A DNA stretch of 64,000 nt, taken from Prorocentrum cordatum (Eukaryota). Where the stretch lies: positions 1 to 64,000 of the forward strand of contig CAUYUJ010000194.1 in NCBI GenBank assembly GCA_963575745.1. Reading direction: 5' to 3'. Position numbers and translations under genes: made by a program. The notes below the pieces were generated by a model that was not told the DNA's origin, searched no databases, and saw nothing but the letters and a program-made list of their open reading frames with translations. Shown here piece after piece: positions 1,500 through 64,000 of the stretch. The first letter of the stretch is position 1, and every line of letters begins with the position of its first letter.

Positions 1500-2474
1500 A
1501 CCAGCCTCCACGCGATCCCCAAGCACATTGCCCCCCCCGGCGCCAATCCCCAAAACGCTCCTACGGCGCCCGGGCCGGGATGGCTTCTACTCGCGGCAAT
1601 TCCCTGCAGCGGGCCGAAGCGGACGGACGCATCCCACGCATAATACATGGCGCCAACTCAGGGCAATGTTATCGGGCAGGAATTGTCTTGATCTTCAAGA
1701 GCATGTAGTCATTGGGCAACGTGCAGCTGAGTCGCGAATTCCTCTCACGGTCAACGACGTGCCCAAGTCCAAGGCAACGCGCGCGAAAAACCGCGTTCCT
1801 CAAGTGTTCGGCAGTCGATGAGATCAGCTTCATCCAGCGACCGATAATCAAAAAAGCACATGATATCACGCCTGCTCCACCACTGCCCCTCGCGATAGCA
1901 CCGATGGCGCACGCGCCATCCAGCCCCTCACCAGCAGCGCCGATCGGCATCGCAATTATCTTGCCCCATTGTTGCCGGCCCCTTCTGGATGTCACAACCT
2001 CTCTGACTCATCGCCGAAGATGCCGCGGAAGCCGCGGCAACTGACGGTCCGTCTACAGGAATCACAGCGTCACCGACACGAATGTCTGCGCGTCTACCCT
2101 TGGGTGGCCGCGTTCCTCCGGCGCCCCCAGGGGCTGGCATTTCTGGGGGCGGCGGATGAGACGTCCGGCGATCGGGCGGCGCCGGAGGAGGAAAAACCAG
2201 ACCCCACGCTCACTGAAAGCCACTATGTAAGAATATCTCATATTATGGTTTTTAAGAACATGTTTCAGCACATGTGCTTCCATATACAATATTTAGGGAA
2301 ATGTATCATTTCCACATACAAGCCGTCCTCAACTGGAGGTAATGCCTGAGTAGATGCGCATATAGTATTCTTATTGCGCAGACTGTGTTTCTATGCTACT
2401 AATGGGTACGTTATGTCCCTGAAATGGAGCAGACAGGGGGAGAGCGACGCCCTAACGATAGTCAAGAACGGAAT

Positions 2475-4815: not shown

Positions 4816-4861
<46 letters not shown>

Positions 4862-5798
4862 TATGACTATGACTATGACTATGACTATGACTATGACTAT
4901 GACTATGACTATGGCTATGGCTATGGCTATGGCTATGGCTATGGCTAGGGCTAGGGCTAGGGCTAGGGCTAGGGCTATGGCTATGGCTATGGCTGTGGCT
5001 ATGGCTATGGCTATGGCTATGGCTATGACTATGACTATGACTATGACTATGACTATGACTATGACTATGACTATGACTATGACTATGACTATGACTATGA
5101 CTACGACTATGACTATGACTACGACGATGACTACGACTATGATTATGACTATGACTATGACTATGACTATGACTATGACTATGACTATGACTATGACTAT
5201 GACTATGACTGCGACTATGACTATGACTATGACTATGACTATGACTATGACTATGACTATGACTATGACTATGACTGATATTATAACTATGACTATGACT
5301 ATGACTATGCCTATGCATATGCCTATGCCTATGTCTATGCCTATGCCTATGCCTATGCCTATGACTATGACTATGACTATGACTATGACTATGACTATGA
5401 CTATGACTATGACTATGACTATGACTATGACTATGACTATGACTATGACTATGACTATGACTATGACTATGACTATGACTAAGACTATGACTATGACTAT
5501 GACTATGACTATGACATATTAGTAGTACCATGACTATGACAATGACTACGACTACGGACTACGGACTACGACTATGACTATGGGCTATGAACATGCTATG
5601 ACTATGGGACTATGACTATGACTGATGACTATGGCGATGACTATGACTATGACTATGACTATGACTATGACTATGACTATGACTATGACTATGACTATGA
5701 CTATGACTATGACTATGACTATGACTATGACTATGACTATGACTATGACGATGACGATGACTATGACTATGACGACGACTATGACTACGACTATGACT

Positions 5799-5851
<53 letters not shown>

Positions 5852-6255
5852 TATGACTATGACTATGCCTAGGACTATGCCTATGCTATGCCTATGCCTT
5901 TGCCTTTGCCTTTCCTATAGCCTATGCCTATATGACTATGACTATGACTATGACTATGACTATGACTATGACTATGACTATGACTATGACTACGACTACG
6001 ACTATGACTATGACTATGACTATGACTATGACTATGACTATGACTATGACTATGACTATGACTATGACTATGACTATGACTATGACTGTGACTATGACCA
6101 TGACTATGACTATGACTATGGCTATGGCTATGGCTATGACTATAACTACGACTATGACTATGACTATGACTATGACTATGACTATGACTATGACTATGAC
6201 TATGACTATGACTATGACTATGACTATGACTATGACTATGACTATGACTACGACT

Positions 6256-6308
<53 letters not shown>

Positions 6309-6715
6309 TATGCATATGCCTATGCCTTTGCCTATGCCTATGCCTATGCCTATGCCTATGCCTATGCCTATGACTATGACTATGACTATGACTATGACTA
6401 TGACTATGACTATGACTATGACTATGACTATGACTATGACTATGACTATGAATATGACTATGACTATGACTATGACTATGACTATGGCTATGGCTATGGC
6501 TATGGCTATGGCTATGATGACTATGACTATGACTATGACTATGACTATGACTATGACTATGACTATGACTATGACTATGACTATGACTATGACTATGACT
6601 ATGAGTATGACTATGACTATGACTATGACTATGACTATGACTATGATTATGATTATGACTACGACTATGACTATGACTACGACTATGACTACGACTATGA
6701 CTACGACTACGACCA
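2475..6715. repeat. (GACTAT)n hexamer array with variant blocks (GACTAC, GGCTAT, GCCTAT, GCCTCT, GACGAT, GGCTAG)
   Basis: Directly visible; all MT/DY/HS/VI ORFs here are repeat translations. Confidence 0.98.
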
Positions 6716-15982: not shown

Positions 15983-16157
15983 TGTTGCTGTTGTCGTTCG
16001 GGCCCCAACAACAAAGTCTGGTGGCATCATGCCCTCCCTGTGCTGTTATATGTATAAAAGAAAAATGCGAGCCCCGAGGAGGGCACGCCAGTAGTAATTA
16101 TAGAATGTTTACCAGAGGGCGGAAACAACAGGAGTTATTCTTCAGACACGACAACTC
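15226..16157. mobile_element. R module (15246-15413), inverted 42-bp arm with inverted L module (15413-15932), (GTT/GCT)n, second R module (15990-16157)
   Basis: The reverse complement of 15800-15932 reads AATAATTTTAAGACTG...CCCAAACCCTCGATACCCGCCCTCGTCGTCTTCGG. Both R copies carry TGCGAGC...GGGCAC and end TTCTTCAG...TCAAC. Confidence 0.65.
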
Positions 16158-16211
<54 letters not shown>

Positions 16212-16279
16212 AACAACAACAACAACAACAACAACAACAATAACAACAACAACAACAACAACAACAACAGCAACAACAA

Positions 16280-16311
<32 letters not shown>

Positions 16312-16372
16312 ACAACAACAACAACAACAACGACGACGACGACGACGACGACGACGACAACAACAACAACAA

Positions 16373-16403
<31 letters not shown>

Positions 16404-16686
16404 AACCACAACCACAACCACAACCACAACCACAACCACAACCACAACCACAACCACAACAACAACAACCACAACAACAACAACAACAACAACCACAACC
16501 ACATCCACAACCACAACCACAACCAAAACAACCACATCAACCACAACAACCACAACAACCACAACAACCACAACAACCACAACAACAACAACAGCAACAA
16601 CAACAACAACAACAACAACATCAACAACATCAACAACAACATCAACAGCAACAACAACAACAACAACCACATCAACCACAACAACC

Positions 16687-16722
<36 letters not shown>

Positions 16723-16893
16723 GCAACAACAACAGCAACAACCACAACAACCACAACAACCACAACAACAACAACAACAACAACAACAAAAACAACAACA
16801 ACGACGACGACGACGACGACAACAGCAGCAGCAGCAGCAACAACAACAACAACAACAACCACAACCACAACAACAAAAACAACAACAACAACG

Positions 16894-16939
<46 letters not shown>

Positions 16940-16940
16940 T

Positions 16941-16986
<46 letters not shown>

Positions 16987-17040
16987 GCAGCAACAACAAC
17001 AACAACCACAACAACCACAACCATAACCACAACCACAACC

Positions 17041-17071
<31 letters not shown>

Positions 17072-17212
17072 CCACAACCACAACCACAACCACAACAACC
17101 ACAACAACCACAACAACCACAACAACCACAACAACCACAACAACCACAACAACCAGAACAACCACGACAACCACAACAACCACAACAACCACAACAACAA
17201 CAACAACAACAG

Positions 17213-17240
<28 letters not shown>
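16157..17240. repeat. (AAC)n microsatellite with ACAACC, GAC and AGC variants
   Basis: Directly visible. Confidence 0.98.
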
Positions 17241-17243
<3 letters not shown>

Positions 17244-24271: not shown

Positions 24272-25245
24272 CTCCGCCACCTCCTCCACCTCCGCCACCT
24301 CCGCCACCTCTTCCTCCTCCTCCTCCTCCGCCGCCCCCACGACCTCCGCCACCACCTCCTCCTCCTCCTCCTCCTCCTCCTCCTCCTCCTCCTCCTCCTC
24401 CTCCTCCTCCTCCTGCGCCTCCGCCTCGCGTCCGCCTCCGCCTCCGCCTCCGCCTCCGCCTCCGCCTCCGCCTCCGCCTCCGCCTCCGCCTCCGCCTCCG
24501 CCTCCGCCTCCGCCTCCGCCTCCGCCTCCGCCTCCGCCGCCTCCGCCTCCGCCTCCGCCTCTCCCCTCCCTCCCCTCCCTCCCTCCCCTCCCTCCCTCCC
24601 TCCCTCCCCTCCCCTCCCCCCTCCCCTCCCCTCCCCTCCCCCTCCCCTCCCCTCCCTACCCTCCCCTCCCCTCCCCTCCCTCCCTACATCCTTCCTCCCT
24701 CCCTCCCTCCTCCTACCCCTCCCTCCTCCCCTCCCTCCCTCCCTCCCTCCCTCCTCCCCTCCCTCCCTCCTCCTTCCCCGCTCCTCCTCCCTCCTCCTAC
24801 TCCCCTCCTCCCCCTTCTTCCTCCCTCTTCCTCCTCTTCCTCTCTTCCTCCTCCTCCTCCTCCTCCTCTCCTCCTCCTCCTCCTCCTCCTCCTCCTCCTC
24901 CCTCCTCGTCCCTCCTGTTCCTCTGTTCCTCCTGCTTCCTCCTACTCATCCTCGCCTCTGCCCGTATTCCTACTCCTCTGCTTCCTGCTCCTGCTCCTCC
25001 GGCCTCCGGCTCCTGCTCCCGGCTCCTGCTCCTGCTCTGGTTTCCTGCTCCTGCCTCCGCTCCTCCTCCTCCTCCTCCTCCTCCCTCCCCTCCTCCCTCC
25101 TCCTCCTCCTCATCCTCCTCCTCCTCCTCCTTCCTCCCCTGCTTCCCCTCATCCTCCCTCCTCCTCCCCTCATCCCTCCTCCTCCTCCTCCTCCCTCCTC
25201 ATCCTCCTCCCTCCTCCTCCTCCTCCTCCTCCTCCTCCTCCTCCG
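24272..25245. repeat. (CCT)n/(GCCTCC)n/(CCCT)n polypyrimidine tract
   Basis: Directly visible. Confidence 0.95.
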
Positions 25246-27067: not shown

Positions 27068-27875
27068 CCCCTATGGATGTACTTAAGTATTAATGTATGC
27101 ATTGGCATATGTATTAATGTATGTACTTAGTTAAGTTTGATGCTTCTGTATGTAAGTGTTCCTTTATGATTTTGAGTATGCATTTCTGTGTTTCTGTGTG
27201 TGTATGTACTTAAGCATGTGTGTCTGTATACATGTATGTGTTAGTGGTGTATGTACTTACTCATTGATGCATGTATGTACGTATGTGTGTATGCATGTGT
27301 GCGTGTATGTATGTATGTATGTATGTATGTATGTATGCATGTATGTATGTATGTATGTATGTATGTGTATGGATGTATGTATGTATGTATGGATGTATGT
27401 CTGTCTGTATGTCTGTCTGTCTGTCTGTATGTATGTATGTATGTGTGTATGTGGATGTGTATGTATGTATGTGTATGTGTATGTATGTATGTATGTATGT
27501 ATGTATGTATGTATGTATGTATGTGTGGATGGATGGATGGATGTATGTATGTATGTATGTGTGAATATTTATGTTTGTGTGTATATGTGTATGTATGTAT
27601 GTATGTATGTATGTATGTATGTACGTATGTATGTATGTATGTATGTATGTATGGATGTATGTTTGTATGTTTGTATGTTTGTATGTATGTATGTGTGTAT
27701 GTATGTATGTATGTACGTATGTATGTATGTATGTATGTATGTATGTACGTACGTATGTATGTATGTATGTATGTGTGTGTATGTATGTATGTATGTATGT
27801 ATGTATGTATGTATGTATGTATGTATGTATGTATGTATGTATGTATGTATGTATGTATGTATGTATGTGTGTATG
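26796..27875. repeat. (CT)n followed by (ATGT)n microsatellites
   Basis: Directly visible. Confidence 0.97.
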
Positions 27876-29214
27876 TAGTTTTCCTGGTTTGACCACACGG
27901 GGCCCGGAAACGGCCGCACGCCAAAACTGCATCGTAGAGATCTGGGTACGCAGGTCGCACACCACATTCCGCGGCCCAGCGGAAGGGGGGATCATCGCCG
28001 CCGCCGCCGCCGCCATCGCCCCCCCTCGCTCCGTCGTGTTCCGTGCTCCTCGTCAGCCTTCGCTTCTTCCTTCTCGTTCGCCGCCTTGTCCTCCTCCGAC
28101 CTGTCCTTCGCTTCATCCTGGCGTCCTCGGCTATGCTCCGCAGCCTCCTTCGCGCGTTTCTTTTTTGTCGCCGAGCCAGGGTGTTTCCTTCGTCTCCCTC
28201 CCCGGCCGGGCCAGCCTCGCTCTCCTCTTACGGCCTCTTGCCCAGGCACGTCCGGGTGCCCTCCTCCTTGCTACACCTCTTGCGCCCACCGCGTGCCAAG
28301 TCCCCATCCAGACGTTCAGCGCCAGCTGGCCGAACGGGCTTCCTTGTAGCTGCCCTTTGCTGGCTCTCCGCACGTGCGGGCTGCTGTGGCCGCTCCATCC
28401 CACCCACCGCTTCTGTCCGACCCACACTACCCGACACACACCCGCAGTCACAGCACGTCCGCGGGCAGGGTCTACCTTGGCCACCTCGCCACTTCGCTGC
28501 TGGCGCAGCTTTTGTCCCCCATGCCGACGCCCCCACGCGCCACCCGACACTACGCAGTTGGGTCTGGTCTCCTCCGCCGCCACGATGCCTCCTCGGGCCC
28601 TGCCTGGCTTGCCAGAAAATGCCTTGCCGCACCTCGTTCGGTGCGCCCTGCCCGGTTTGCTGGCCGCGACTCTCTCAGTGCGGCCGGCACTGCTCCCGCC
28701 CTCTGCCGCCAAGAGCGCCCCCTGGCGAGATGCGCCCGCTGCCCCCGGACAGCCCCCTCCTCCTCCTCCTCCTCCTCCTCCTCCTCCTCCTCCTCCTCCT
28801 CCTCCTCCTCCTCCTCCTCCTCCTCCTGGACAGCCCTCACCTCATGTGGCCTGTCCGGCCGCCCGCTCCCCCACTGCCTCCAGCAGCTCGCAGCACGGCG
28901 TGCACCTCCCACGTGGGCGCGCGCTCTTTGCCACCGAGAGGTCCACCACTTCCCTGACTACCTACCAAACCACCCCAACCCAACCCGAAGACCCGAATTT
29001 CGGGTTGGCGGGGGTACGGGCTTCATGTGTGTCTTCTCAACGTTCCCCGACCGCCCCAACTGGAAATGGAGGGCAACTTGGGGCCTTCGGGTTGGGTTGG
29101 GGTGGTTTGGTGGGCGGTGATTCCCGCCGCCTCGCTGTCACCTCGTCCCTTTCTTGCGTCGCCCAGACCTGCTCCCCAGTGAGCACGGACTGCCGCGCCA
29201 GCCTCCTTCCTGAT

Positions 29215-30632: not shown

Positions 30633-31325
30633 GATTCGTGATAGTATGTGTCTTATTGGGGTTACTAGTAGTACGAGGCTTGTGCGGTTTGCTGTACTGA
30701 TTGATTAATATCTTTCGTTTTCTTATCAAGATAATTATCGGTATCATTATGTATCTAATTCGTCTATTCTTCGTACAATGAACATTGTGTTTCGTATTAG
30801 TACTCCTCTTGTTCCTCTTCTTCAAACTACGATCCAGATTGTTATGAGTCGTCTTTTTCTTCGTATTAATACCCTTCTCATTATTATTAATACCCTGTTC
30901 CTTAATTGTACAAGTTGTCTTTCTTGTAATGTTCGCATCTTCCGTAGTATTGGTATTATTCTCATTCGTATTAGTATTCCTCTCCTTCATATTATCAAGA
31001 GTATGATTAGTAACATTACTGTGCCTCTTGTTCCTCTCATTATTCATCTCCTTCGTCTTCCTCGTCTTCTTTCTCATTATCATCAGCATCATCATCACCA
31101 TCGACACCACCATCACCGGCATCATCATCATAATCGCCTTCATCATCACATTCACCCTCACCATCACTAGCATTATCATGATATTCAGCAGCATCATCAT
31201 TATCGTAATCATAATGATCCTCCCCTTTATCGTCATGAGCAGCACCAGCAGCATCATCATCATCATCAGCAGCATCATCCTCATCAGCATACCATCATCC
31301 TCGACACCACCACCACCACAACCAT

Positions 31326-31375
<50 letters not shown>

Positions 31376-31632
31376 GCATCATCATCAGCATCATCATCCT
31401 ATTCATCATCAGCATCATAAACATCATCATTATTATTATCACCATCATCATCATCATTATCATCAGCATCATCATCAGCAGCATCATCGACATCATCAGC
31501 ATCATCAGCAGCAGCATCATCAGCATCCTCATCATCAACAACATCATCATCATCGTTTCATCATCGTTTCATCATCATCATCATCGTCATCATCATCATC
31601 ATCAGCATCATCATCATCATCATCAGCATCAG

Positions 31633-31684
<52 letters not shown>

Positions 31685-31685
31685 G

Positions 31686-31724
<39 letters not shown>

Positions 31725-31740
31725 GCATCATCATCAGCTC
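30385..31740. repeat. (ACT)n and (ATC)n microsatellites with decayed trinucleotide flanks
   Basis: Directly visible. Confidence 0.95.
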
Positions 31741-34437: not shown

Positions 34438-34728
34438 GCAGCATCATCATCATCATCATCGTCGTCAGTTTCAGCAGCATCATCACCATAATCATCAGCA
34501 GCATCAGCATCATCAACCTGGTCATCACCATCAGCTCTAATTATCATACTCTCTATCATCAACATCAGGTGGAGAAGGAAAAGGAGGGGGAGGAGGAAGA
34601 GGAGGAGGAGGTGGAGGAGGAGGAAGAGGAGGTAAAAGAGGAGGAGAAGGAGGAGGGAGAGTAGGAGAAGGGGGAGGAGGAGGAGGAGGAGGAGGAGGAG
34701 GAGGAGGGGGAGGAGGAGGAGGAGGAGG
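34025..34728. repeat. (ATC)n then (GAG)n microsatellites
   Basis: Directly visible. Confidence 0.95.
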
Positions 34729-36639
34729 ACGGGATTGGCGGCGTGAAATGCAAGGCGGCGCAAAGTGTGGGCGAGTGCGTGGGTGATGCTGCTTGGAGGG
34801 CGTCGCGGGGCGCGGGCAAGTGCGTCGGTAATGCTGAGTTGCGCGTGGCATGTCTTCGCCGCGCTGGGCGGCGTGCTTGCCGACAGAACCTCACGCGTGG
34901 GTCTGGGCTCTGCCAGGATGTCTGGCGCGTCCCGCGCGTGGCGTCGGCGAATTCGACGCGGCGTCGCGTCGGGGCGACTCAGAGTCGCCGACGCAGGAGA
35001 TAGCTTGGGTGCGTGGCGGAATAAGCGTTTGCAGTTGAGCGTGGCTGGGCTTCGCTGTGCTGGCGCGCGCGCCCAAGCAGAGGTTTCGTTTGAACTGCAG
35101 TGCGAGAATGCTTCCACGGGACCAGAGCGTCTTGCGACGCTGCGGAGAGAGCGAATGTCGCGGCTGTGCAGGGTTGGCTGGAGACGGCAGGGCCGAGGGT
35201 GCGCGTCAGGCTGGTTGGCGCTGGGCACGCGGGCGGCAGCGCTGGCGACGAAGGGCGCGGCGGCGGTCGTGGCCGTGCCGCGGAGCGGCGTCGGGGAGCG
35301 GCGGGCGGGGAGCTGCCCGGCAGTGCATCATTCCAGATGTGAGCGATTTCAGCAGCGCCACGGATGGTGGATTTGGCGCTCAGGGCGAGGCGGGCGCCAT
35401 TGGCCGCGAGGCGCAGGGCGGCGGCGGGGGGCGCGATAGCGGTCGCAGGTCGGGGCAGGGGCGCAGGGGCGGCTGCTGGACCCCGTCGCATCATTCCAGG
35501 TGTAAACGATTTCAGAAGCGATGAGGAGGGAAGGATCGTTGGCGCCGAAGTCGAGCTGGAGGTCATTGCCGGTGAAAGGGTAGCGGGGAGGGAAGTCGCG
35601 GCGGGGGTGCGGAGGCGCGGCGGGGCAGGGGGGCTGCTCTTCTTCCCCGCGCCCTGGGCGTCGCGGATTTCAGCGACGATGATGACGGCGCGCTCGCTGG
35701 GCCCGAAGAGGGCGGAGTTTCTCGCCCGCGCAGGGGCAGCGGGGCGCGCCGAAAGCGCGGGGCCGCGGACGGGTCGCTCGCGACGGAGGCGGAGTCCAGG
35801 CAGTTCCAGCCGGATTACGCGGATGAGGACCGGCGCAAACGGATGACGTGGGGGGGGCGGGAGGAGCGCCAGTTTCGGCCTCAGAGAGGAAGCGACGCGC
35901 GCGGGAAGTGCGCCACACATGGGTGTCCGCACGGGCGCGTCAGGGGCCCGACTCCGGCGCTCGCGTCGGACAAGTTCAAGGAGTTCGCTCTGAAGGCGAA
36001 CAGGCCGTCGAAAAAATGGCACGCGCGGCACGCGATGTGGGAGGCGGCGCCGAAGATGAAGCCTGAGTTGAAGTCCATACGCGAGGTGGACGAGCACGGG
36101 CAGTTTGCTTTGTCGAACGGCGAATACGAGCAGTGCTTGAAGCAAGCGCATGGGATTTCCCAACAACAACACCCCCCCGGAAAATATGCAGCAACAAAAA
36201 CAGTAATAACCACAACAACAACAACAATCATTTTACCCTCATGCGCCATGCTTCCACATGACACATGCATCCATCTGGATAACACACCCCATCATGGGGG
36301 ATTTTTCTGGCATGCGGGATCCGATATTCCCTCACCCAGATATCCCGCCCAAGAAGGTTTGGCCACCACCTCTTCCGAGGAACTTCAACATCCATAGCTC
36401 GGACGGCACATCGCCTTCGCAATCGCCTTGCGCATGCCCCGCATCTCAGAGGGAGAGGAAGAGGAAGAGGAGGGGGAGATGAGAGAGATAGGGAGGGGGA
36501 GGAGGAGAAGGGAGGGGGAGGAGGGGGAGGAAGGATGAGTAGTTGTAGTAGCAGCAGTTGATGATATTGTTGTTGCGGCTGTAGCACTAGTAGTAGTGGT
36601 AACGGTAGTAGTAGTCCAAGTAAGAGTAACAATAGTAAT

Positions 36640-37083
36640 ATTAGTAGTAGTAGTAGTAGTAGTTAGTAGTGTTGTTGTTGTCGTAGTGTTCGTCGTAGAG
36701 GAATTGAAGTAGCAGTAGTAGCAGTAGTAACCAAAATAGTAGTAGTACTAGTATCAATAGTAGTAATAGTAGTACTAGTAGTACTAGTAATTCGAATAGT
36801 TTTCAGTAGTACTAAGTAGTAGTAGTAGTAGTAGTAGTAATAGTTGTTGTTGTTGTAGTAATAGTAGTAGTAGTAGTAATAGTAGTAGTAGTAATAGTAG
36901 TAGTAGTAGTAGTAATCGTGGTAGTGGCAGTGGCAGTAGCAGTGGCAGTAGCAGTAGCAGTAGCGGTAGCGGTAGTAGTCGTAGTAGTAGTAGTTGCTGT
37001 AATAGTAGTAGCTGTAGTACCTGTAGTAGTAGTAGTAGTAGCAGCAACTGCAATATGAGTAATAGTTGTGGTAGTAGTAGTAA

Positions 37084-37119
<36 letters not shown>

Positions 37120-37199
37120 CAGTAGCAGTAGCAGTAGCAGTAACAGTAGTAGTGTAAGTAGTGGTAGTAGTTGTTGATGTTGTAGTTGTAGTTGTAGTT

Positions 37200-37238
<39 letters not shown>

Positions 37239-37250
37239 TAGTAGTAGTAA

Positions 37251-37321
<71 letters not shown>

Positions 37322-37380
37322 TAGTAGTAGTAGTAGTAGTAGTAGTAGTACTTGTTGTTGTCGTTGTTGTTGTTGTAGTA
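36640..37380. repeat. (TAG)n microsatellite
   Basis: Directly visible. Confidence 0.97.
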
Positions 37381-46500: not shown

Positions 46501-48238
46501 AAGATGACTCGAAGAATACGAATAGTTTTGCAAACCTAGTCCGAGTAGCAGACCCAGTTCAGAGCTCTGGATGCAACAGACAAACGTGCCTGATGATTCG
46601 GAATCAGTTTCTGTGCGTATGAGCTCTGTAGCTGTCCTACAGCCCGAGTTGCGTGCGAAAACGGACAGCACCTCTCAAGATGACTCGAATGATACGAATA
46701 GTTTCGCGGACCTAGCTCGAGTAGCAGACCGAGTTCAGACCTCTGGATTCAACAGACGAACGCGCCTGATTATTCTGCATCGTTTTCTGTGCGCATTAGC
46801 TCTGTAGCTTCCCAGGAGCTCGAGTTAAGCACAGAAAACCGACAGTCCCTGTCGAGATGACCCGAGCGATACGAATAATTTTGCGGACCTAGCTCGAGAA
46901 GCAGACCGGTTTCAGACCTCCACATGCAACAGGCGGACGCGCCTGATGTCTCCTAATCGGTTTCTGCGATTACCAGCCCAGTAGCCCCCCTACCGCCCGA
47001 GTTAAGTACAGAAAACCGACAGCATCTCTCAAGATGACTCGAACAATACGAACAGCTCCGCGGACCTAGCTCGGGCAGCAGACCGAGTTCAGACCTCTGG
47101 ATGCATCAGACGAACGCGCCTGATGATTCTAAATCGGTTTCTGCAATTATCAGCTCTGTAGCTCTCCTACAGCTCGAGTTAAGCACAAAAACCGTCAACG
47201 CGTGTCAAGGTGACTCGAAACAGCCGATCCCGCCGGGATGCTTTTTGGCAGTAATATCTACCCGATCGAGCAGAGATTGAGACGGCGAGAAGGAATGAGA
47301 TCAAATATGATGGGAGCTCTAACGAATGGTTGAATTTCGAGAACAAAATTTTCAACCGACCAAAAGTCACCACACGGTCCGTCGAGATTTTTCTTGCCAA
47401 CTAGCTCTCCAGCGCCCCGGAACTGGGAGCCGGCGGTAAACCGTCAACCAGGTTACCGCCGGGGGCCTCGTAGGAACACATGGAAAGAGCTTCATCAAGC
47501 GTTAGCTGTTGATATCAGTTGAAAACTCGAGAAATATTGTTTCTGGGTTTTACGCAATGTCGGTTCCTTCTGATCTTTTGATAGAAATAATGCAGCTAGA
47601 GCCCTGAGAATTGCACCATCGAACGCGCCATGATTCACTGCAGAGAATAAAGATCTGGATTTCCAAAACGAATTTCAAAATCTCTCACAATCTCCGAAAA
47701 ACCGACCCCAGGTTACCACATTGTCCACCCGGGCCGGGTCGGGCAACTCGCCCCGGCGCTGAACCGTCAACCTGGTCACCGTCGGGAACCTCGTAGAGCT
47801 CTTTACACTGGTAAGGGTGCTCAGAATCCAAGTAGAGTCATAAAATAAAGATTCCCCTAAAATCTTGGTTTTCGATTTTTTCGATGTTCATATTGTCTCG
47901 GTTCCGGGAAGTCAACTCTTGATAGTATACATCGGGAGAGCTCAGCTGCTGTCAGAGAGAAGTTTATATGCCAATGATCGGCGTAAAAATCTGCTTCCTC
48001 ACAATGAATTGTCAAATATCTTTCAAATCTTCGCAAAACCGACCCAATGTTAACACATTGTCCGCCCAGGCCGGGCCCGCCAACTAGCTCCACCCCGCGC
48101 CGGAATTCCTCTAGCTAATCGATGCCGAAGAGATCTACGAGGTACTAGCTCCACCCTGCGCCGGAATTCCTCTAGCTCATCGATGCCGAAGAGCTCTACG
48201 AGGTATTACTGGCGCCGGCGGTGAACGTCAACCTGGTC

Positions 48239-49482
48239 TGCGATGTCTGCGTTGGCCGATTCGAGCTCCCTGGACAGCAGGCCAGGACACAGAGAACCTA
48301 AACAGCGAAGCTGCAAAGATTAAAGCAGAGATGCATTCAAACAGCGAAGCTGCACAGATATGCACAAGACTGCAAGTACACGAGAAAACAACTAACAAAA
48401 TAATGAGAGAAGCAATGCAGACCATAGATATGGAAGCAAAGCTAGAAGCAGTGAGAGACCACACAGTAACCACTGGTTTATACAGCGATTACCGTCTCAA
48501 CACCACTGAGAAAAACACGAAACTAAGAACTAAAATAGCGAGTGCGCTACAAAGTAATGCGAGACCATGCAGTAACCACATATAGCGATTACCGTCTCAG
48601 CACCACTGAAAGACAATGCACGTGAAACACAACGTCGAAATGTGGACTAGATAACGAATTAAGAGGGCAACATACAGAGTGAGCCAAGACACCCACCACT
48701 ACATAGAGCGAATGCGGGCTCTTATCCGAACAAAGTGAAGATCAGGCGAAGCTCTTATTCAACACACGTGCATGCACGACAACACACACAGGCATGAAGA
48801 AAGGCAACGCAATGACAAATCACAATAGTTCGAACACGAAGTATGTGGAAATCAAGTGCAATGAAATCTGAACTTCACTCGAGGCGAAGTATAAAATCGG
48901 ATGCCCAGAGACCTCAATATCAAGATACTCTAATGTCACAAAACTGTCAAAGTACCTCAACGTTGAAGAAACCACACGTGTACAAGAGCAATAATGAAAC
49001 GAAAGAAACGATTCCAACCACCCCTCGAAGGTTCCCACTGCGTTGTGAATAAGAGTACTCAGACTGCGACCAAAGTCAAAATTGGATACGTGCTGAGAGC
49101 AACTCGTACAAGATAACAAATGCGGCAAGTACAATCACAAGCGGCCTGGAAGTGCAAGCAGACAACGCAACAAGTACAAAACAAGCGGCCTGGAAGTACA
49201 GGAAAACAAATGCAGCAAGTACGATCAAAGCAAGCGGCCTATGCACCTGCTCCAATGGGAGCTGTCTCACTTGACACAACAGAGAACCTGGTGCCTATCG
49301 TCTGTAGGCCCACGGAGTGGAGGTCGTCGCAGACGACGAAATACCCGAAGATATGGGACGGTTCAGTGGCGTACGATACGTGTGCGTGCACAGAAACCTG
49401 TCCGCACAATGCGGCTCGGGGAAGCCACCGACGGGCCAGGTCGCCGCTGAACTCCCCCAGGAGGGACAGCAGCAACCTGGTC
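48239..49482 (-). mobile_element. Inserted element, copy 1 (short), inside a hairpin
   Basis: Bounded by CAACCTGGTC at 48229-48238 and 49473-49482; both ends are homologous to copy 2. Confidence 0.75.
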
Positions 49483-51798
49483 TTTTGCGTCTTTTGCGAA
49501 GGCCGGTTCGAGCTCCCATGGGAGCAGGCCTAAACACAAAGAACCTAAGCAGCAAAGCTGCAAAGATTAAGTACAAGTGCACAAACAGCGAAGCTGTACA
49601 GTATACAATACACGAGAATGCAACTCAAAAATTGACGGAAGTAAAGCAGTGCGAGACCATGCAGTAACCACATATAGCGATTACCGTCTCAGCACCACTG
49701 AAAATAAAAACAGTGAGTGACCATACAGTAACCACTGGTTTATACAGCGATTACCGTCTCAACACCACTGAGACAAACACAAAACTAACAACTAGAATGA
49801 CGAGTACACTCCAGTCCTCTTTGAGGCAACCGTAGTGTCGACAGATCAAAGGCCTACTTTGAGGCACCACGTGACAAATCACGGAAAGTCACGTTCAAAG
49901 GTCAATGAGCACTCAAATCAAGGAAGCAACGAATGCACTCAATCAATGAAGAAAGGCAACGCAATGACAAATCAAGCGTGCAGGATCAATCGCATGTGCA
50001 TCATCTGTGCCGTTTCCGATGCTTCTTGCCGCTCCGCGTCAATGCACTCCTGGAAGTAAAACTCTGAGGACCCCCTTGTTGCGAATCATCCTCCTCGGAG
50101 CTTTCAATTCCCAAATGCAGCCTGTATGCATTAAGAGCCTCAGTCCTACGCTGAAGCTCCTGTGTCGGGAGTCGGTGTAGCTCAAGCCAAAGAGCCCTCA
50201 TATCGACACCGGCAAGAGCCCAGTCCCTGGCAGCTTGGCACTCAGAGCGTGTCTCACTCGGTCGATCTGCAGAACTCCCATTCATGGAACTCCCTACTGC
50301 ATCAGCTGAACTCCCAACTGCAGAACTCCCAGCTGTTGAACTCCCAACTGCATCCTCAACTGCATCAGCGGAACTCCGAACTGTGGAACTTCCTGCTGAA
50401 CTCCCAAGTGTTGAACTCCCGACTGCACTGGAACTCCCGACTGCATCAACTGTACTCAAAACTGCGGTACTCTCCACCGCACTCCCGTTGGTCGCATGCA
50501 ATTCTGAAGTGCGCAACTTTGTACTCTCGATAGTCTCCGTTCGTTTGAAACAATATCTCTTCATTCTGAGAGAAGCATCACCCCGATCAACGTGCACTCG
50601 ATGACACTCCTCCTTCTCCCCCTCACCAACATGAACAAAATCCTCCTCAGCCACCTCCTCCTGCTCCAGCTTAGTAACTGCTTCACTATGAGCATTATCA
50701 TCCTCCTCGTCCTTGCAGCCAGGGTTCGATGCCACAGCATCAGCTGAACTCCAAACCGCGGTACTCCCAACTGCAGAACTCCCAGCTGTTGAACTCCCAA
50801 CTGCATCCACAACTGCATCAGCGGAACTCCGAACTGTGGAACTTCATACTGCACTCCGAACAGTGGAACTCCCGACTGCACAGGAACTCCCAACTGCAGA
50901 AGCATCACCCTGATCAGCGCGCACTCGATGACACTCCTCCTTCTCCTCCTCACCAACAAAGAGAACACAAAGATCAGTCTGAGTCCCACACTCAATGTGA
51001 ACACAGGGATCTGTCTGAGTCCCACAATCGGAACACTGCGAACGCAAAGAGTTGCCAGCCAATTCAACTGCATCCATATCAGTCTGTGTTCCACAAGTGT
51101 CCTCAACCCACTCCTCTTCCTCAGAATCGTCCGAGCAGAAATTCCGATAATATCTGGGCGCGAAAATGCCCGCGCGAACAAGGCACGACGGATCTGGCCC
51201 CCGAGCCGTGGACCACAAACGATACCTGACACGTTTCGCCCGCAAACGGCGCAACTTCGATTGAGAAACTTTGACACCATGCCCATACAGCTGGTCTCGC
51301 TCATGCATGCGAGACTCACCTCCGTACGAAGGGCGAACACGGCAATATAGATCACTAACACACACTTCGACCGTAGACAAACGAGCAGACAAACAAGCGA
51401 GAGACTCGGAAGTAAACAACGCCGTATCTGTCCAATCTGAAGCAAGAAAATCCGCGCCTGACAATTCAGATGAAACAAACTCCATATATAAAAACGTGGA
51501 CTCGCTCTACAAGAAGGCAAATCACAAGCAATAACTAGATGGACAGTTGAGATAACCAAGGAGAATGCTGTTCCAACGATACTCCGACAATCTCAACAAT
51601 TATATGCACTCCGACGACAATCAATAAGAGGCCGTCGACAAGCAATAAGAGTGTACGGTACTCAGGCAAAAGAGACACTGAAGCACCGTGTACGGTAAAG
51701 AGAACCAAACGCCAGGCACGGCACGATGCCGCTCGAGGAGGCATCCGACAGGCCAGGTCGCCGCTGAGATCCCGAGGAGGGACAGCAGCAACCTGGTC
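49483..51798 (-). mobile_element. Inserted element, copy 2 (ORF-bearing), in tandem with copy 1
   Basis: Bounded by CAACCTGGTC at 49473-49482 and 51789-51798, after which the host hairpin resumes (ACCGCCGGGAACCTCGTAGAGCTC). Confidence 0.75.
50001..51485 (-). pseudogene. ~494-codon cargo ORF of unknown function with one premature stop; AVGSS repeats, three CGTQTD motifs and a basic C-terminus
   Basis: ORFs 50844-51485 and 50001-50810 are in the same frame. They are separated by TGA at 50844-50846, where sibling repeats have GGA (Gly). Confidence 0.55.
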
Positions 51799-54700
51799 AC
51801 CGCCGGGAACCTCGTAGAGCTCCTTTCACACGTGAGAGTGCTCAGAATCAAAAGACAGAGCTTCTGGAAGCATTTCTCGAAAAAGGCAATATTGATTTTT
51901 TTCATGTCGAAATAAAGTTGGTTCCGCCAAGTGTTTTGATAGTAAAAGTGCGCCTACGGAGCTCATATAGTCTTTCACGGGTGCGAAAAATCTGGTTTCT
52001 CAAAATGGATGGTTGAATATCTTTGAAATCTTAGCAAAACCGACCCAAAGTCACCACTTTGTCCTTTCTGGTCGGGTCGACCAACTGGGAACCGGCGGTA
52101 AACCGTCAACCAGGTTACCGCCGGGGCCCTCGTAGAGCTCTTTTCTCACACGGCGCTCATCGGTAGACATGAAGAAAGCGTCTGGAGCAAGACCTGAAAA
52201 ACTCGAAAAATCACGTTTTTCTGTTTTTATCCAACGTCGGTCCCCCAAATGTTTTGATAGTAATACTGCAGCTACGGACCTGAGATTTTCACTGGAAGAC
52301 GCGGCACAACCCACTACAGGTGCGAAAAATCTGGTTTCTCAAAATCAATTGTCAAATATCTTTCAAATCTTCGCAAAACCGACCCGAAGTTACCACATCT
52401 TGTTTTCTGGTCGGTCGACCAACTAGCTCCACCCCGCGCCGGAATTCCTCTAGCTCATCGATAACGAAGAGCTCTACGAGGGACTAGCTCCACCCCGCGC
52501 CGGAATTCCTCTAGCTCACCTGGTAGCGTCCACTGGGCGCCGGCGGTAAACCGTCAACCTTTCTTACCGCCGGGAGACTCGTAGAGCTTCCTTTCCATAT
52601 ATGATGTCCAAAGAAGTAGCAGGGGGCGAATATTTTTTCAGTCCGAGCGCTGATAGCAGACTGATCTCAGGCGTCTAGATACTACTGCCGCTGATAATTC
52701 CCTTCCAATTGTTGTGCTGAACAGATCCAGCCAAGCGGCGCCTCATGATTTCCATATCATTTATGTGCCAAAGAGCTCTCAAGTTAGGTGAAGAAATTCA
52801 CCGTCATTTCGAAGAAAAATCTGTCCAATACGGAAAATTTTGCGACCTAGCTCGAGTCGCAGACTGAGTTCAGAGCTCTGGATGCTTCAGACGAACGCGC
52901 ATGCGATTCTGAATCGATTATGTGTGCGTACAAGCTCTGTAGCTATGCTAAAGCTCGAGTTAAGTACAGAACACCGACAGCGCCTGTTTAGAGACCTCGA
53001 AGAATACAAATGGTTTCGCGGACCTGGCTCGAGTAGCAGACCGAGTTCAGACCTCTGCATGCGACAGACAAGCGCACCTGATGATTCTGAATCGGCGTTT
53101 GTGAGTACCAGCTCTAAAGCGTTTCTAGAGCCCGAGTTAAGTACGACAGCACCTGTCAAGATGACTCGAAGAATACGAATAGCTTCGCGGACCTAGCTCG
53201 AGTAGCAGACCGAGTTCAGACCTCTAGATGTGACTGCAGAACGCGCCCGATGATTCTGAATCGATTACGTGGGCGCATCAGCCCTGTAGCTCTCCTACAG
53301 CTCGAGTTAAGCAGCGAAAATCGACAGCATCCGCCTACAGAAATTCGTAGAATACGAATAATTTCGCGACCTAGCTCGAGTAGTAGACCGAGTTCAGACT
53401 CTAGATGCTAGAGACAGACGCGCCTGATGTTTATAAATCGGTTTCTGTGAACACCAGCTCTGTAGCTCTCCTACAGCCCGAGTGAAGTACAGAAAACCGA
53501 CAGTACCTGTCAAGATGACTCGAATGATCAAACAGTTTCGCAGATCTAGCTCGAGTAGCAGACCGAGTTCAGACCTCTAGATCCAACTGACGAACTCGCC
53601 TGATGATTCTGAATCGGTTTCTGTAAGTATCAGCTCTGTGGCTGCTCTACAGCTCGAGTTAAGTACAAAAAACCGTCAACGCGTATCAAGATGACTCGAA
53701 ACGGCCGATCCCGCCGCAACGCTTTTTGGCAGTAAAAGGTACCCGATCGAGCTGAGATCAAGATAGCGAGCGGGAACAAGATCGAATATAGTGCGAAAAA
53801 TACTAGAGCTCAAACGAATTGTTGACTTTCGAGAACAAAATTTTCAACCGACCAAATCAGCAAAAGGTCCGTCGAGATGTTTCTGGCCAGCTAGCTCCCC
53901 AGCGCCCCGGAATTACTGGGCGCCGGCGGTAAACCGTCAGCCTTTCTTACCGCCGGGGGACTCGTAGAGCTTCCTTGCCATATATTTATCCAAAGAATTG
54001 GCAGAGAACGAATAGTTTTTCAGCCTCCGCTGATAGCAGACTCGAATACAACACTCAGTTCAGAACTCTAGATGCAACAGACGCACGCGCCTGATTATGC
54101 TGAATCGATTGATGTGCGTACGAGCTCTGTGGCCTTCCACATTTCGAGTTAAGTACAGAAAAACGACAGCATCTGCCAAGATGACTCAAATAATGCGAAT
54201 AGGTTCACGGACCTAGCTCGAGTAGCAGACCGAGTTCAGACCTCTAAATGCCATAGATGAACGCGCCTGGTGATCTCGAATGGGTTCTGTGAGTATCAGT
54301 TCTGTAGGTGTCCCACAGCTCGAGTTAAGTCCAGAAAGCCGACAGCATCTGTCAAGATGACTCGAATAATACGAATAGGTTCGTGGACATAGCTCGGGTA
54401 GCAGACCGAGTTCAGACCTCTAGATGCAACGAATGAACGCGCCTGATGATTCAGGATCAGTTTCTGTTAATATGAGCTCTGTAGGTGTCCTACAGCTCGA
54501 GTTAAGTACAGAAAACCGACAGCATCTGTCAAGATGACTCGAATAATATGAATAGCTTCGCGGACATAGCTCGGGTAGAAGACCGAGTTCAGACCTCTAG
54601 ATGCGACAGATGAACGCGCCTGATGATTCTGGATCGGTTTCTGATAATAAGAGCTCTGTAAGTGTCCTACAGTTCGAGTTCGTACAGAAAACCGACAGCA

Positions 54701-57700
54701 CCTGTCAAGATGATTCGAATACTACGCATAGTTTCGCACGACCTAGCTCGGGTAGCAGACTGAGTTCAGACCTCTAGATGCAACAGACAAACGCGCCTGA
54801 TAATTCTAAGAGGGTTTCTCTGAATATCAGCTCTGTAGCTGTCCTATAGCTCGAGTGATGTTCAGAAAACCGCCACCGCGTGTCAAGATGACCCGAAACG
54901 GCCGATCCCGCCGCAGTGCTTTTTGACAGTAGTATCTACCCGATCGTGCTGAGATTGAGACGGCGAGCGGGAATGAGATCGGATATCACGGGAAAAAATA
55001 CTAGAGCTTAAACGAGTGTTGAAATTCGAGAACAAAAATTTCAACCGACCGAAAATCAAAAAAAAGTCCGTCGAGCTTTTTTCTGGCCAACTAGCTCTCC
55101 AGCGCCCGGAATTACTCTTAAGCTTCCAGCAACTAGCTAAGGGAAGCTCTACGAATACTCGAATACTACGAACAGCTTCGCAGACATAGCTCGGGTAGCA
55201 GACCGAGTTCAGACCTCTAGATGCAACAGACGAACGCGCCTGATGATTCTAGGAGGTTTGTTTTGTTAATATCAGCTCTGTCGCTGTCCTATAGCTCGAG
55301 TTATGTTCAGAAAACCGCCACCGCGTGTCAAGATGACCCGAAACGGCCCATCCCGCCGCAGTGCTTTTTGGCAGTAATATCTACCCGATCGATCTGACAT
55401 TAAGACGGCGAGCGGGAATAAGATCGAATATCACGGAAAAAAATACTAGAGCTCAAACGATTTGTTGAATTTCGAGAACAACTATCAGAAAGCGTTGCGG
55501 CGGGATCGGCCCTTTCGATTCATCTTAAGACGCGCTGTCGGTTTTTTGTACTCAATTCGAGCTGTAGGACAGCTAAAGAGCTGATACTGACAGAAACCGA
55601 TTCATAATCATCAGGCGCGTTCGTCTGTTGCATCCAGAGGTCTGAACTCGGTCTGTTGCCCGAGTCATTGCTCGATTCATCTTGAAACGTGCTGTCGGTT
55701 TTCTGTACTTAACTAGGGCTGTAGGGAGGCTACAGGGCTGGTAATTACATACACCGATTCGGAGGCATTAGGCGCGTCCGCCTGTCGCATGCAGAGATTT
55801 AAAATCGGTCTACTACTCGAGCCAGGTCAGCAACACTATTCGCATCGCTCGGGTCCACAGGGACTGTCGGTTTTCATACTGGATCGTCTCATGTGCATAC
55901 CAGCTTTGTAACTCTTCTAAATCTTCAATTGAGTAAGGAAGACTGAGAAAACTTGTCAAAATGACTAAGAAGAATAAAGAATAGACGAACGCGCCTAAAT
56001 CTCGAGTTAAGTACTCAAACCGTTCAACGATATTCGCAAAACCACCCAACAGTTTCTCCCTTCTGCATTCGATAGATGCCGAAGAGCTCAACGTGGTTCT
56101 GGCTGGCGCCGGCGGTGCACCGTCAACCTGGTCACCGCCGCGTAAGATTACTCAGAATCGAAAGAGACAGCTTCTGGAAGCATTTATACAATTCATATTT
56201 TTTCATGTCCACGTGAAGTTGGTTCCGCCAAGTGTTTTGTAAAAGTGTGCCTACACAGCTCATATTATGAAGCAGAGGCTCTCACTGTCATCTACAGATG
56301 CGAAATATATGTTTTTCTCAAATGAATTGTGAAACATCTTTCCAATCTTTGGAAAACCGACCTAAAGTTGACACATTATCTCTTCTTGTTGGGTCGACCA
56401 GCCCGCACCGGAATTTCTCTAGCTCATCGATAAAGAAGAGCTCTAAGAGCTAGAAGCGTCGGCTTGGTAGCATCTACTTGGTAGCCACTGGACCCCGCGG
56501 TAAACCGTTAATCTGGTCGCCGCCGAGAACTCCGCAGAGCTCCTCCGACGCGTGAAGTGCTGAGAGTCGAAGGAGAGAGCTCCTCGAGCCATTTCTCGGA
56601 AAATTGAATTCATTTGTTGATTAAAGTTGGTTCCGCCAAGTCTTCTGTTGTAAATTTATGCCTAAGACACAGAAACTCTCATAGTCGTGTACAGGTGTGA
56701 AAAATATCGTTTCTCAAAATACATGGTGAAGTATCTCTGAGATCTTAGCAAAACCGACCACTCGGTAGCGTCCACTCGGAACCGGCGGTGCACCGTCAAC
56801 CAGATTACCGCCGGGGCCCTCGTAGAGCTCTTTTCTCACACTGCGCTCCTCCGTCAGCATGAAGAAAGCGTCTAGAGGAACACCGAAAACTCGAAAAATC
56901 ACGTTTTTCTGTCTTTATGCAACGCCGGTTCCTCCAAGTGTATACTGCAGTTACGTACCTGAGCATTTAACTGGCAGACGCATAACCCACTACAGGTGCA
57001 ACACATCTTTTTTCTCACAATGAATGGTCAAATGTCTTTTAAATGTTCGCAAAACCACCCAAAGATTACCCCTGTGTCCTTTCTGGCCGGGTCGACCAAG
57101 TAGCTCCACCCCGCGCCGAAATTCCTCTAGCTTATCGACAACGAAGAGCTCTACGAGGTACTGACGCCGGCAGTGAACCCTAAACCTGGTCACCGCCGGG
57201 AACCTCGAAGAGCTCCTTTCACGCGGGAGAGTGCTCAAAGTCGAAAGAGAGAGCCTCTCGAAGCTCGAAAAAGAGAAACATTGATTTTTTCGTGTCCCAG
57301 ACTGGGAACTGGCGGTAAACCGTCAACCAGGTTACCGCCGGGACCCTCGTAAAGCTCTTTTCTGATGAAGAAAGCTTCTGGGGCGAGGCCCGAAATAATA
57401 GAAAAAGTACGTTTTTCGATGTTTATCTGTCGTCAGTTGCTCCAAGTGTTTTGGTAGTCATACTGTACCTACGGGCCTAGAAATTTTACAGGTGCACGCG
57501 TCAAAGCCCATTATAAGTGCGAAAAATCTGTTTTTCTCTGAATGAATTGTCAAATATCTTTCAAATCTTCGCAAAACCGACCCAACTTTGTCTCTTAAGG
57601 CCGGGTCGACCAACTGGCGCCGGCGGTGAACCGTCAACCTGGTCACCGCCGGGAACCTCGTAGAGCTCCTTTCACACGTAAGAGAAAAAATCGAAAAATT

Positions 57701-63923: not shown

Positions 63924-64000
<77 letters not shown>
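63924..64000. other. Poly(A) run reaching the window end
   Basis: Directly visible; could be a retroelement tail or a sequencing/assembly artefact. Confidence 0.6.

Follow-up and report, generated by a model that had tools for sequence, protein, structure and literature searches.

How do two related pieces of DNA come to stand head to tail inside one palindrome, with the same ten letters at every junction? The question is raised by a 64,000-nucleotide stretch of the Prorocentrum cordatum genome (contig CAUYUJ010000194.1, positions 1 to 64,000; "the window" below denotes this whole stretch), in which two inserts, here called E1 and E2, separate the halves of a palindrome that belongs to a satellite-like repeat. 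We conclude that E1 and E2 very probably represent a multi-copy, transcribed, non-autonomous and site-specific mobile family that occupies one exact position of the satellite palindrome.

Two inserts split one palindrome at a 10-bp core

The 10-mer core CAACCTGGTC stands at 48229, 49473 and 51789, and a single palindrome is thereby split. Its left half CCGGCGGTGAACGT (48215-48228) runs into core copy 1 (48229-48238), the two forming a plus-strand block at 48215-48238; on the other side core copy 3 (51789-51798) runs into the right arm ACCGCCGG (51799-51806), a plus-strand block at 51789-51806. The 3.55 kb that separate the halves are taken up by E1 (48239-49472, 1234 bp, without a long open reading frame (ORF)), by core copy 2 at the E1/E2 junction (49473-49482, plus strand) and by E2 (49483-51788, 2306 bp). 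Both inserts are assigned to the minus strand, E1 being taken as minus-sense with its 3' end at 48239 and its 5' end at 49472. The insertion site is GGTC|ACC, and the two elements are oriented head to tail. The core occurs seven times in the window against an expectation of 0.14, a count reached in none of 100 shuffles; three of the seven mark the junctions, those at 47768, 56124 and 57635 belong to intact palindromes, and the one at 34514 is a chance match inside an (ATC)n tract. Coordinates and counts bear out an initial annotation of this DNA, which had placed a 10-bp core at all three junctions within a split hairpin.

Excision of 48239-51798 restores the target, except for a 1-base deletion in the left arm of the split copy; the missing C, behind 48225, is present in other copies, as contigs of public sequencing runs reveal. 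The outer inverted repeat of the host unit, GAGCTCTACGAGGT (48191-48204, plus strand), pairs across the inserts with 51809-51822, its 14 nt being 100% complementary. On the minus strand the core reads GACCAG|GTTG, and within 48229-51798 the segment composed of GTTG, the element and GACCAG starts with GT and ends with AG. Removing that segment restores the empty site exactly, which is introner-like and may be a coincidence.

Both inserts end GGCCAGGTCGCCGCTGA...GGAGGGACAGCAG, as the initial annotation had it, and a pattern search of the window returned two matches, exclusively these. Written out, the ends read T(G/T)...CAGCAG, or ...CTGGTC with the core included. Comparison with the window by blastn aligned the left parts (48248-48551 with 49495-49813) at 73% over 334 columns, a 61-bp block (48551-48611 with 49643-49703) at 97%, a 29-bp island at 48794 and 49946 at 100%, and the last 69 bp of the right ends (49404-49472 with 51721-51788) at 84%. 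The middles are unrelated, so that the description of E1 and E2 as diverged members of one family with different middles stands. The motifs said to be common to both over ~500-600 bp span that distance with the 29-bp island counted; contiguous left-end similarity covers just ~320-365 bp. Neither pattern searches nor blastn found a further copy of either end in the window.

Tandem 9-mers open both left ends, and the first three bases of each array are the last three of the core (GTC). They differ between the two subfamilies, being GTCTGCGAT/GTCTGCGTT in E1 (48236-48253, plus strand) and two copies of GTCTTTTGC in E2 (49480-49497, plus strand). The E1 version is inherited, since the same left end is read in P0022, a protein from another contig that is described below.

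The target is a palindrome of an abundant satellite

Eighteen intact palindromes lie in the window: all 18 left halves are on the plus strand and 18/18 are followed by a right half. Besides these, the window holds the split palindrome and, at 59590, a decayed one. The consensus arms are CCGGCGGTGA and TCACCGCCGG. In the fold of the target a GC-rich stem of 10 bp closes a 13-nt loop, in which most of the core lies. Read as a recombination-type site, it has an 8-bp centre flanked by inverted arms of 12-13 bp, CCGGCGGTGAACC-GTCAACCT-GGTCACCGCCGG. The 10-bp stem is paired in 93.5% of aligned cells, and one of its pairs switches from A-T to G-C in four sequences, with a covariation score reached by 31 of 500 shuffles. 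The target is an inverted repeat with modest covariation support.

Three loop types occur, ...CAACC-AGGTT, -TTTCTT and -TGGTC. Each is tied to its own downstream module, and upstream modules vary freely. E1 and E2 occupy the TGGTC type; palindromes of the other kinds are of the CAACCAGGTT type and the CAACCTTTCTT type. Four intact TGGTC copies accompany the occupied one in the window (one of the four carries a 1-base core variant): three start at 47753, 56109 and 57167, and the fourth, CCGGCGGTGAACCGTCAACCTGGTCACCGCCGG at 57620-57652 on the plus strand, is unoccupied and identical to the consensus. With empty sites in the same window, insertion at one exact base of a conserved palindrome, as first proposed, is well founded.

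The satellite spans 44-64 kb and is built of units of ~320-460 bp, one conserved palindrome in each, as well as of sub-repeats of 61 bp and tandem arrays of 177 bp. For X2 and X5, both DNA runs, word depth is 4,000-83,000 in the flanks and 35-1,200 in the inserts, a 10- to 1000-fold excess, depth here not being the same as copy number. The host is a very abundant satellite-like repeat, and its own mobility is without support. This departs from the initial annotation, in which the target was 'another element' and the inserts 'hyperparasitic': what is targeted is a palindrome in an abundant tandem or satellite-like repeat, and hyperparasitism is unproven.

The idea that the host units are themselves cassettes of the same system was rejected. 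Because loop variant, compensating arm base and downstream module co-occur while the upstream module varies, the unit boundary lies to the left of the palindrome and not at the core. Two EukProt proteins labelled Pyramimonas sp. (P0023 and P0024) are translations of Prorocentrum-type satellite including an intact AGGTT-type palindrome, which suggests cross-contamination of the Pyramimonas data set or a shared repeat.

Other copies occupy the same base

The region was compared with contigs of four public runs, namely X2 and X5 (DNA), X15 (poly(A) RNA) and X7, which is labelled 'RNA?' and treated as RNA by guess. In addition, translations spanning the junctions were used as queries against protein collections. 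One X7 contig, given as from another organism, has GGCGGTGAACCGT directly before 49473; there the E2-type left end follows host left arm and core immediately, E1 being absent. Before 48226 two X7 contigs have GCCGGCGGTGAAC, an E1-type left junction with the canonical arm.

The first protein query gave three matches, two of which are translations of the host repeat alone. The third, P0022, comes from another P. cordatum contig and reads ...KKASGARNEK-LAPAVNRQPG-LRCLRWPIRAP..., the canonical left arm, the core and an E1-type left end (LAPAVNRQPGLRCLRWPIRAP). The upstream segment corresponds to another host module (75% over 20 amino acids with window 52139-52198), and P0022 therefore represents a different locus. 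The second query gave a single match, P0025, also on another contig, with an E1-type right end ...PPTGQVAAELPEGGQQQPG (27/34 identical) followed by the core. Beyond the core P0025 continues with sequence other than the host right arm, and tblastn aligns it over the core into the left end of E2 at 50% over 68 columns, weakly past the core; tentatively, this would be a third, diverged E-type left end.

Altogether three to four host-left/E junctions, one E/host-right junction and two E/E junctions (one of them tentative) were seen, all at the core and with no counter-example, in a tiny sample of other loci for which the first protein query contained host sequence. Independent copies at the target position are the P0022 locus, the X7 contig at 49473 and the P0025 locus; these agree with the expectation that other copies would use the same site. 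Because the same junctions recur at other loci, site specificity and stacking are real.

The family is varied. Up to 13 distinct contigs in run X5 cover a single E1 position, indicating several sequence variants, and joints between E1-type and E2-type sequence at shared motifs (48512/49843, 48793/49946 and 49935/48740) occur in DNA and RNA-labelled runs; mosaic family members exist. A 30-base end pattern had no match in metagenome contigs. An 18-mer over the right junction matched metagenome contigs at 41 loci, which we set aside as chance, the flanks being unrelated and without blastn similarity to 47400-52400. No unit-length joint that 'goes back', of the kind a circle would give, was among the 15 joints listed (there are 203 more, and contigs drop rare forms).

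E2 carries an orphan ORF and both inserts lie in RNA libraries

The sole long ORF of E2 lies on the minus strand (50001-51485, 494 codons) and belongs to an orphan family. It is interrupted by a single in-frame TGA (50844-50846), which is Gly in the relative P0006, and contains internal duplications (50310-50445 with 50763-50898, and 50571-50631 with 50898-50958, both 93%). A complete ORF of an MMETSP transcript matches it at 94%. Proteins matching the ORF, one of them from an MMETSP transcript, are named by their sources as Prorocentrum cordatum. The search of 1.84 billion proteins at E <= 0.001 returned 17 representatives, the query's own included, and by these matches the family is small and lineage-restricted. 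It is modular, with a common N-terminus of ~130 amino acids and different C-termini (P0009, P0010 and P0006).

The E2 ORF had no Pfam match at the cut-off (Parvo_coat at E 0.33 and TOH_N at E 0.12 are noise), a sequence search of the PDB gave nothing below E 0.27, and the atlas offered no usable relative. AlphaFold2 with a six-row alignment gave a mean pLDDT of 33.6, and the protein is predicted to be disordered. It is not a recognisable enzyme. Pfam at the curated cut-off likewise found no enzyme in 15 ORFs of E1 and E2, no reverse transcriptase (RT), endonuclease, tyrosine recombinase, Rep or helicase in eight family proteins, and no RT, endonuclease, Rep, helicase or integrase in 18 ORFs elsewhere in the window.

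Contigs of X15 and X7 lie along both E1 and E2, and a 748-nt X7 contig reaches 51787, the last base but one of E2. At the left junction contigs of the RNA runs contain the core and 13 further host letters; on that side X7 and X15 contigs fade within ~75 bases of the junction, and the DNA runs continue. Over six bins of the satellite flanks (47700-48161 and 51858-52300) X7 depth is 0 throughout, and X15 depth is 0 in three bins and 1.6 to 11 in the other three. X15 also has no cover on 51704-51857. This pattern of cover at the flanks is a weak hint.

Conserved stem-loops and junction-crossing hairpins

Each insert has two conserved stem-loops on the minus strand, at 48446-48515 and 48552-48615 in E1 (together 48446-48615) and at 49643-49706 and 49707-49777 in E2 (together 49643-49777). 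All four are copies of one hairpin of 64-70 nt with ~21 pairs, several of them G-U. Nothing else in the family is as well conserved, and identity between E1 and E2 copies reaches 97%. Folds of the minus-sense RNA have energies of -25.7 to -27.3 kcal/mol (z -3.9 to -5.6), those of the plus-sense RNA just -10.4 to -16.2 kcal/mol (z -1.5 to -2.7), a difference that arises because of the G-U pairs. The predicted folds point to selection of the structure in minus-sense RNA. Their size and shape would also suit small-RNA precursors; there was no match to them in Rfam.

A second kind of hairpin joins each core to the element that precedes it. In E1 (49428-49482, minus strand), core copy 2 and ~36 nt from the start of the minus-sense element form a 14-bp stem that crosses the junction, followed by 4-5 bp, and core copy 3 with the E2 end (51745-51798, minus strand) folds similarly. 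With the core the E1 hairpin reaches -33.3 kcal/mol (z -3.59) and without it z +0.35; the E2 hairpin reaches -32.3 kcal/mol (z -5.18, 0/200 shuffles) and without the core z -0.88. The two count as one observation because their stems are identical. Plus-sense folds are nearly equal (z -4.78 for E2 and -2.71 for E1). In a simpler test, 91 and 108 of 5000 shuffles attained the 8-bp match, one G-T included, between the core and its partner. DNA-parameter folds of the junctions were not significant (z -1.45 to +0.88), and neither was pairing of the left ends with the core, which 762 and 2442 of 5000 shuffles matched.

Terminal repeats, tails and RNA motifs were searched for as well. No terminal inverted repeat (TIR) was found in E1 or E2: 1146-2428 of 3000 shuffles scored at least as high when the left end was compared with the reverse complement of the right end, and an apparent CTGC..TGTC terminal match is within chance. 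The inserts hold no run of six or more A or T, no AATAAA or ATTAAA and no tRNA-like head. These searches, together with the Pfam scans, bear out the earlier remark that no TIR, poly(A) tail or transposase is seen. Rfam gave no match at the gathering score in the window and two weak, irrelevant ones at E <= 10 over 47000-53000, with no self-cleaving ribozyme at the element ends, neither HDV-like as in R2 nor hammerhead as in Penelope and retrozymes. An HDV-like fold of the 5' end, tried by hand, fails for want of a P2 strand. A relic of the dinoflagellate spliced leader had no match at up to 3 mismatches, and there is therefore no sign of a retrogene that bears the leader.

Outside these features the window is eukaryotic DNA of very uneven composition, with kilobase-long microsatellites at 2473-6713, 16157-17242, 24272-25244, 27267-27877, 31074-31736 and 36588-37350. 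The (ATGACT)n array occupies 4.2 kb and the (CAACAA)n array 1.1 kb, the (CTC)n, (ATGT)n, (TCA)n and (TAG)n arrays measure 0.6-1 kb each, and strand skews are strong. The last 77 letters of the window (63924-64000) are all A.

A proposed target-primed route for E1 and E2

How the inserts entered the palindrome cannot be read from the junctions themselves, because with all three cores identical the two routes first proposed, attP x attB recombination of a circle and insertion with a 10-bp target-site duplication (TSD), are inseparable at the locus. Taken together, the evidence leans to an RNA-mediated, TSD-making route, and the class of E1 and E2 is most likely a new target-specific retroposon pair. 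In its full form, a judgement that we place a little short of an even call, the reading is that both are minus-sense non-autonomous retroposons, mobilised in trans by target-primed reverse transcription with a 10-bp duplication. We favour it because of the presence in RNA libraries, the minus-strand ORF, the G-U-dependent minus-sense folds, the 9-mers that include GTC and the lack of a TIR. As for a TSD, the 10-mer flanks each insert, and intact sites carry one copy.

For this mechanism we infer the enzyme, the nick positions, and the strand and ends of the RNA. An endonuclease would nick the plus strand after ...CAACCTGGTC (...CCTGGTC), within the right arm. The nicked ...GTC 3' end would anneal to the 3' tail of the minus-sense RNA (...GAC repeats) and prime cDNA, and slippage of the primer on the ...GAC tail could give the doubled 9-mer. 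A second nick in the other strand, 10 bp off, would yield the 10-bp duplication, which would regenerate the core on both sides and let a second element enter beside the first, producing the stack. The minus-sense RNA would start at ...CTGCTGTCCC and finish in or shortly past the left core. E2 would be the ORF-bearing form, with a 5' untranslated region of 303 nt, the 494-codon ORF and a 3' untranslated region of 518 nt. E1 would be an ORF-less derivative resembling a short interspersed nuclear element (SINE), in which the first 69 nt and, with the two stem-loops, the last ~360 nt are retained.

Several observations weigh against this reading. Neither RT nor endonuclease was found in the inserts, the window or the eight family proteins, so the helper is hypothetical; the poly(A) tail is absent; and the minus-sense strand is T-rich and A-poor (36% T and 16% A in E1), unlike the sense strands typical of SINEs and of long interspersed nuclear elements (LINEs). 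The contigs reveal neither the strand nor the true ends of the RNA, and X7 is RNA by guess. The sample of other loci is small and was partly retrieved by queries that hold host flank. Both ends are precise in every copy seen (three right, three to four left) with no 5' truncation, which therefore fits a DNA-level reaction at least as well. The 9-mers, differing by subfamily, could be iteron-like binding repeats beside a nick site, and a second insertion must cut a half-target. Finally, the core lies within hairpins both in the target and at the element end, a design known from hairpin-dependent DNA recombination.

Among known systems the closest comparison for retroposons of this kind is with target-specific elements that lack long terminal repeats (LTRs), such as R2, Utopia, the Tx1 group, R1 and TRAS/SART, and with HAL1- or SINE-like forms. 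Tx1L, which lies inside another repeat, Tx1D, offers a parallel to an element within a repeat. Like E1 and E2, these elements use one base of a multicopy repeat; the short tandem repeat at the presumed 3' end of E1 and E2 and the presence of the whole unit in RNA libraries may be further points of likeness. A LINE-like TSD length, precise junctions and occasional tandem insertion are shared as well: in the excerpt of PMC4640811 available, such elements have TSDs of 0-20 bp, precise 3' junctions, 5' boundaries that vary among families, and occasional tandem insertion in the target. E1 and E2 differ in having no RT or endonuclease in what was searched, no poly(A), no 5'-truncated copy among those seen, a T-rich sense strand, no HDV-like or hammerhead ribozyme in Rfam, and a satellite palindrome as target in place of an RNA gene or microsatellite.

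Alternative explanations

The alternative that survives best, though we regard it as rather unlikely, is recombination of a circular element with the palindrome through the shared core, by a tyrosine recombinase (YR) supplied in trans, in the manner of Cryptons or integron cassettes. The 10-mer would then be the identity segment of an att site and not a duplication, each unit would bring a new core so that cassettes accrete, and the junction of a unit circle would read ...GGGACAGCAG-CAACCTGGTC-T.... Such a reaction fits the identical core at host-E, E-E and E-host junctions, the precise ends in all copies seen, the lack of a TIR, and a modular family with common ends and exchangeable middles. 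It leaves unexplained the G-U-dependent minus-sense structures and the GTC-including 9-mers, no recombinase was found in the elements or the family proteins scanned, and the joints listed included no unit-length one that 'goes back'. The geometry of the junction is also unfavourable: it is asymmetric, with 2 bases of the identity segment on the left of the dyad and 8 on the right, and symmetric cuts at the spacer edges need GT before CAACC, where the elements have AG. The notion that element ends mimic or capture the host arms was dropped, since their likeness is not significant (180-584 of 2000 shuffles score at least as high).

Together, the right end and the core form a long, imperfect hairpin, conserved in its outer stems and variable at the tip, which may resemble attC. 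Integron cassettes are head-to-tail units with diverse cargo, an imperfect end hairpin that holds the junction core in its outer stem, a variable tip and an enzyme in trans. They differ in being bacterial; no integrase, attI or promoter context accompanies E1 and E2, integron-type genes are absent among the window ORFs, and the E2 ORF points away from the hairpin. The likeness to attC is drawn from two sequences with identical stems. With Cryptons, for which integration as circles is proposed, the inserts share short terminal direct repeats and the lack of TIRs and LTRs; the 13-8-12 layout of the target resembles recombinase core sites, which are inverted repeats of 11-13 bp set 6-8 bp apart (PMC3212892, in the excerpt available). 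Known Crypton repeats measure 4-6 bp and not 10, E1 and E2 have no YR gene, and the same excerpt does not mention a strict palindromic target or stacking for Cryptons (PMC3212892).

Somewhat less likely again is rolling-circle strand transfer of the kind known from IS91, Helitrons and CRESS-origin replicons, in which an HUH-type Rep protein in trans would nick the stem-loop and join the origin of the element to the host palindrome, without any duplication; head-to-tail multimers would arise at the nick site. A stem-loop with the nick sequence in its loop resembles rolling-circle origins, and the GC-rich stem of the target, with most of the core in its loop, has that form. Iterons are tandem direct repeats that differ between subfamilies, as do the 9-mers adjoining the core. 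Head-to-tail stacking at the core was seen twice (in the window and, tentatively, in P0025), and if the units were circles a 'common region' of 69 + 10 + ~330 bp would extend over their junction, the middles differing between the 1.2-kb and the 2.3-kb unit. Helitrons, IS91 and rolling-circle origins share such features: a hairpin near one end, no TIR, tandem arrays, and non-autonomous copies with exchanged middles. Against this, neither Rep nor helicase was found, the Helitron hallmarks (5'-TC, CTRR-3' and insertion between A and T without a TSD) are absent from E1 and E2, the strong hairpin of the element itself has the core in its stem and not in its loop, and the RNA-strand asymmetry of the stem-loops is unexplained.

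Either enzyme could also be cast in a broader scheme, to which we give the same low weight as to the recombinase: a eukaryotic nuclear cassette-accretion system in which a trans-acting, hairpin-dependent YR- or HUH-type enzyme would link 1-2-kb units, with exchangeable cargo but no enzyme of their own, head to tail at a 10-nt core. The core would be presented by the host's 13-8-12 palindrome and by the unit end that pairs with it. This would amount to integron-like or rolling-circle-origin-like logic in a dinoflagellate, and seems equally unlikely.

Transposons with TIRs and TSDs of 8-10 bp or with RNA-gene targeting (MULE, Dada) are a poorer comparison, E1 and E2 having neither TIRs nor a terminal arm pair. 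IS1397 and ISKpn1 target the loops of abundant bacterial REP/BIME palindromes, as E1 and E2 target a satellite palindrome. They are bacterial members of the IS3 family with a transposase, TIRs and a 3-4-bp duplication, unlike E1 and E2.

It is improbable that the stack reflects anything other than two insertions here, either because E2-core-E1 moved as a read-through dimer or because occupied sites underwent recombination or gene conversion. A minus-sense transcript from the right end of E2 would cross the core and continue in E1, in both cases seen (the window and, tentatively, P0025) an E-type left end comes after the E1-type right end, and the mosaic joints show that family members recombine. 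Yet the E1-type right end has different partners, E2 in the window and in P0025 a left end that is far more diverged, the E2-type left end also stands directly behind a host left arm, and after homologous exchange in the host flanks one would expect host sequence between the elements and not the 10-mer alone. That E1 and E2 are not mobile at all, the region being an assembly artefact or a local satellite variant, is very improbable: the region is highly repetitive and no contig among those listed spans the whole stretch, but the same junctions occur at independent loci and in independent runs, the halves of a perfect palindrome stand apart, and the inserts have an ORF family of their own and lie in RNA libraries.

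Significance

Dinoflagellates have huge genomes rich in repeats, and most of their mobile elements have yet to be classified. Against this background E1 and E2 present a clean, base-precise, target-specific insertion: the target palindrome is defined, empty sites are at hand, and the occupants are stacked. We found no description of the element or the satellite in the literature searched, which comprised the available parts of, among others, the P. cordatum genome paper (PMC10666404), a review of dinoflagellate genomics (PMC11453091) and an introner survey (PMC12130899), with Repbase, Dfam and the supplementary tables of PMC10666404 lying outside the search.

If the route is RNA-mediated, E1 and E2 would be a LINE/SINE-like pair with a new type of target, a satellite palindrome, and a testable model of 3' priming. 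If it is DNA-mediated, they would represent a eukaryotic cassette system directed by hairpins, which would be new in kind. In either case the exact target and ends make the mechanism directly testable in the published genome.

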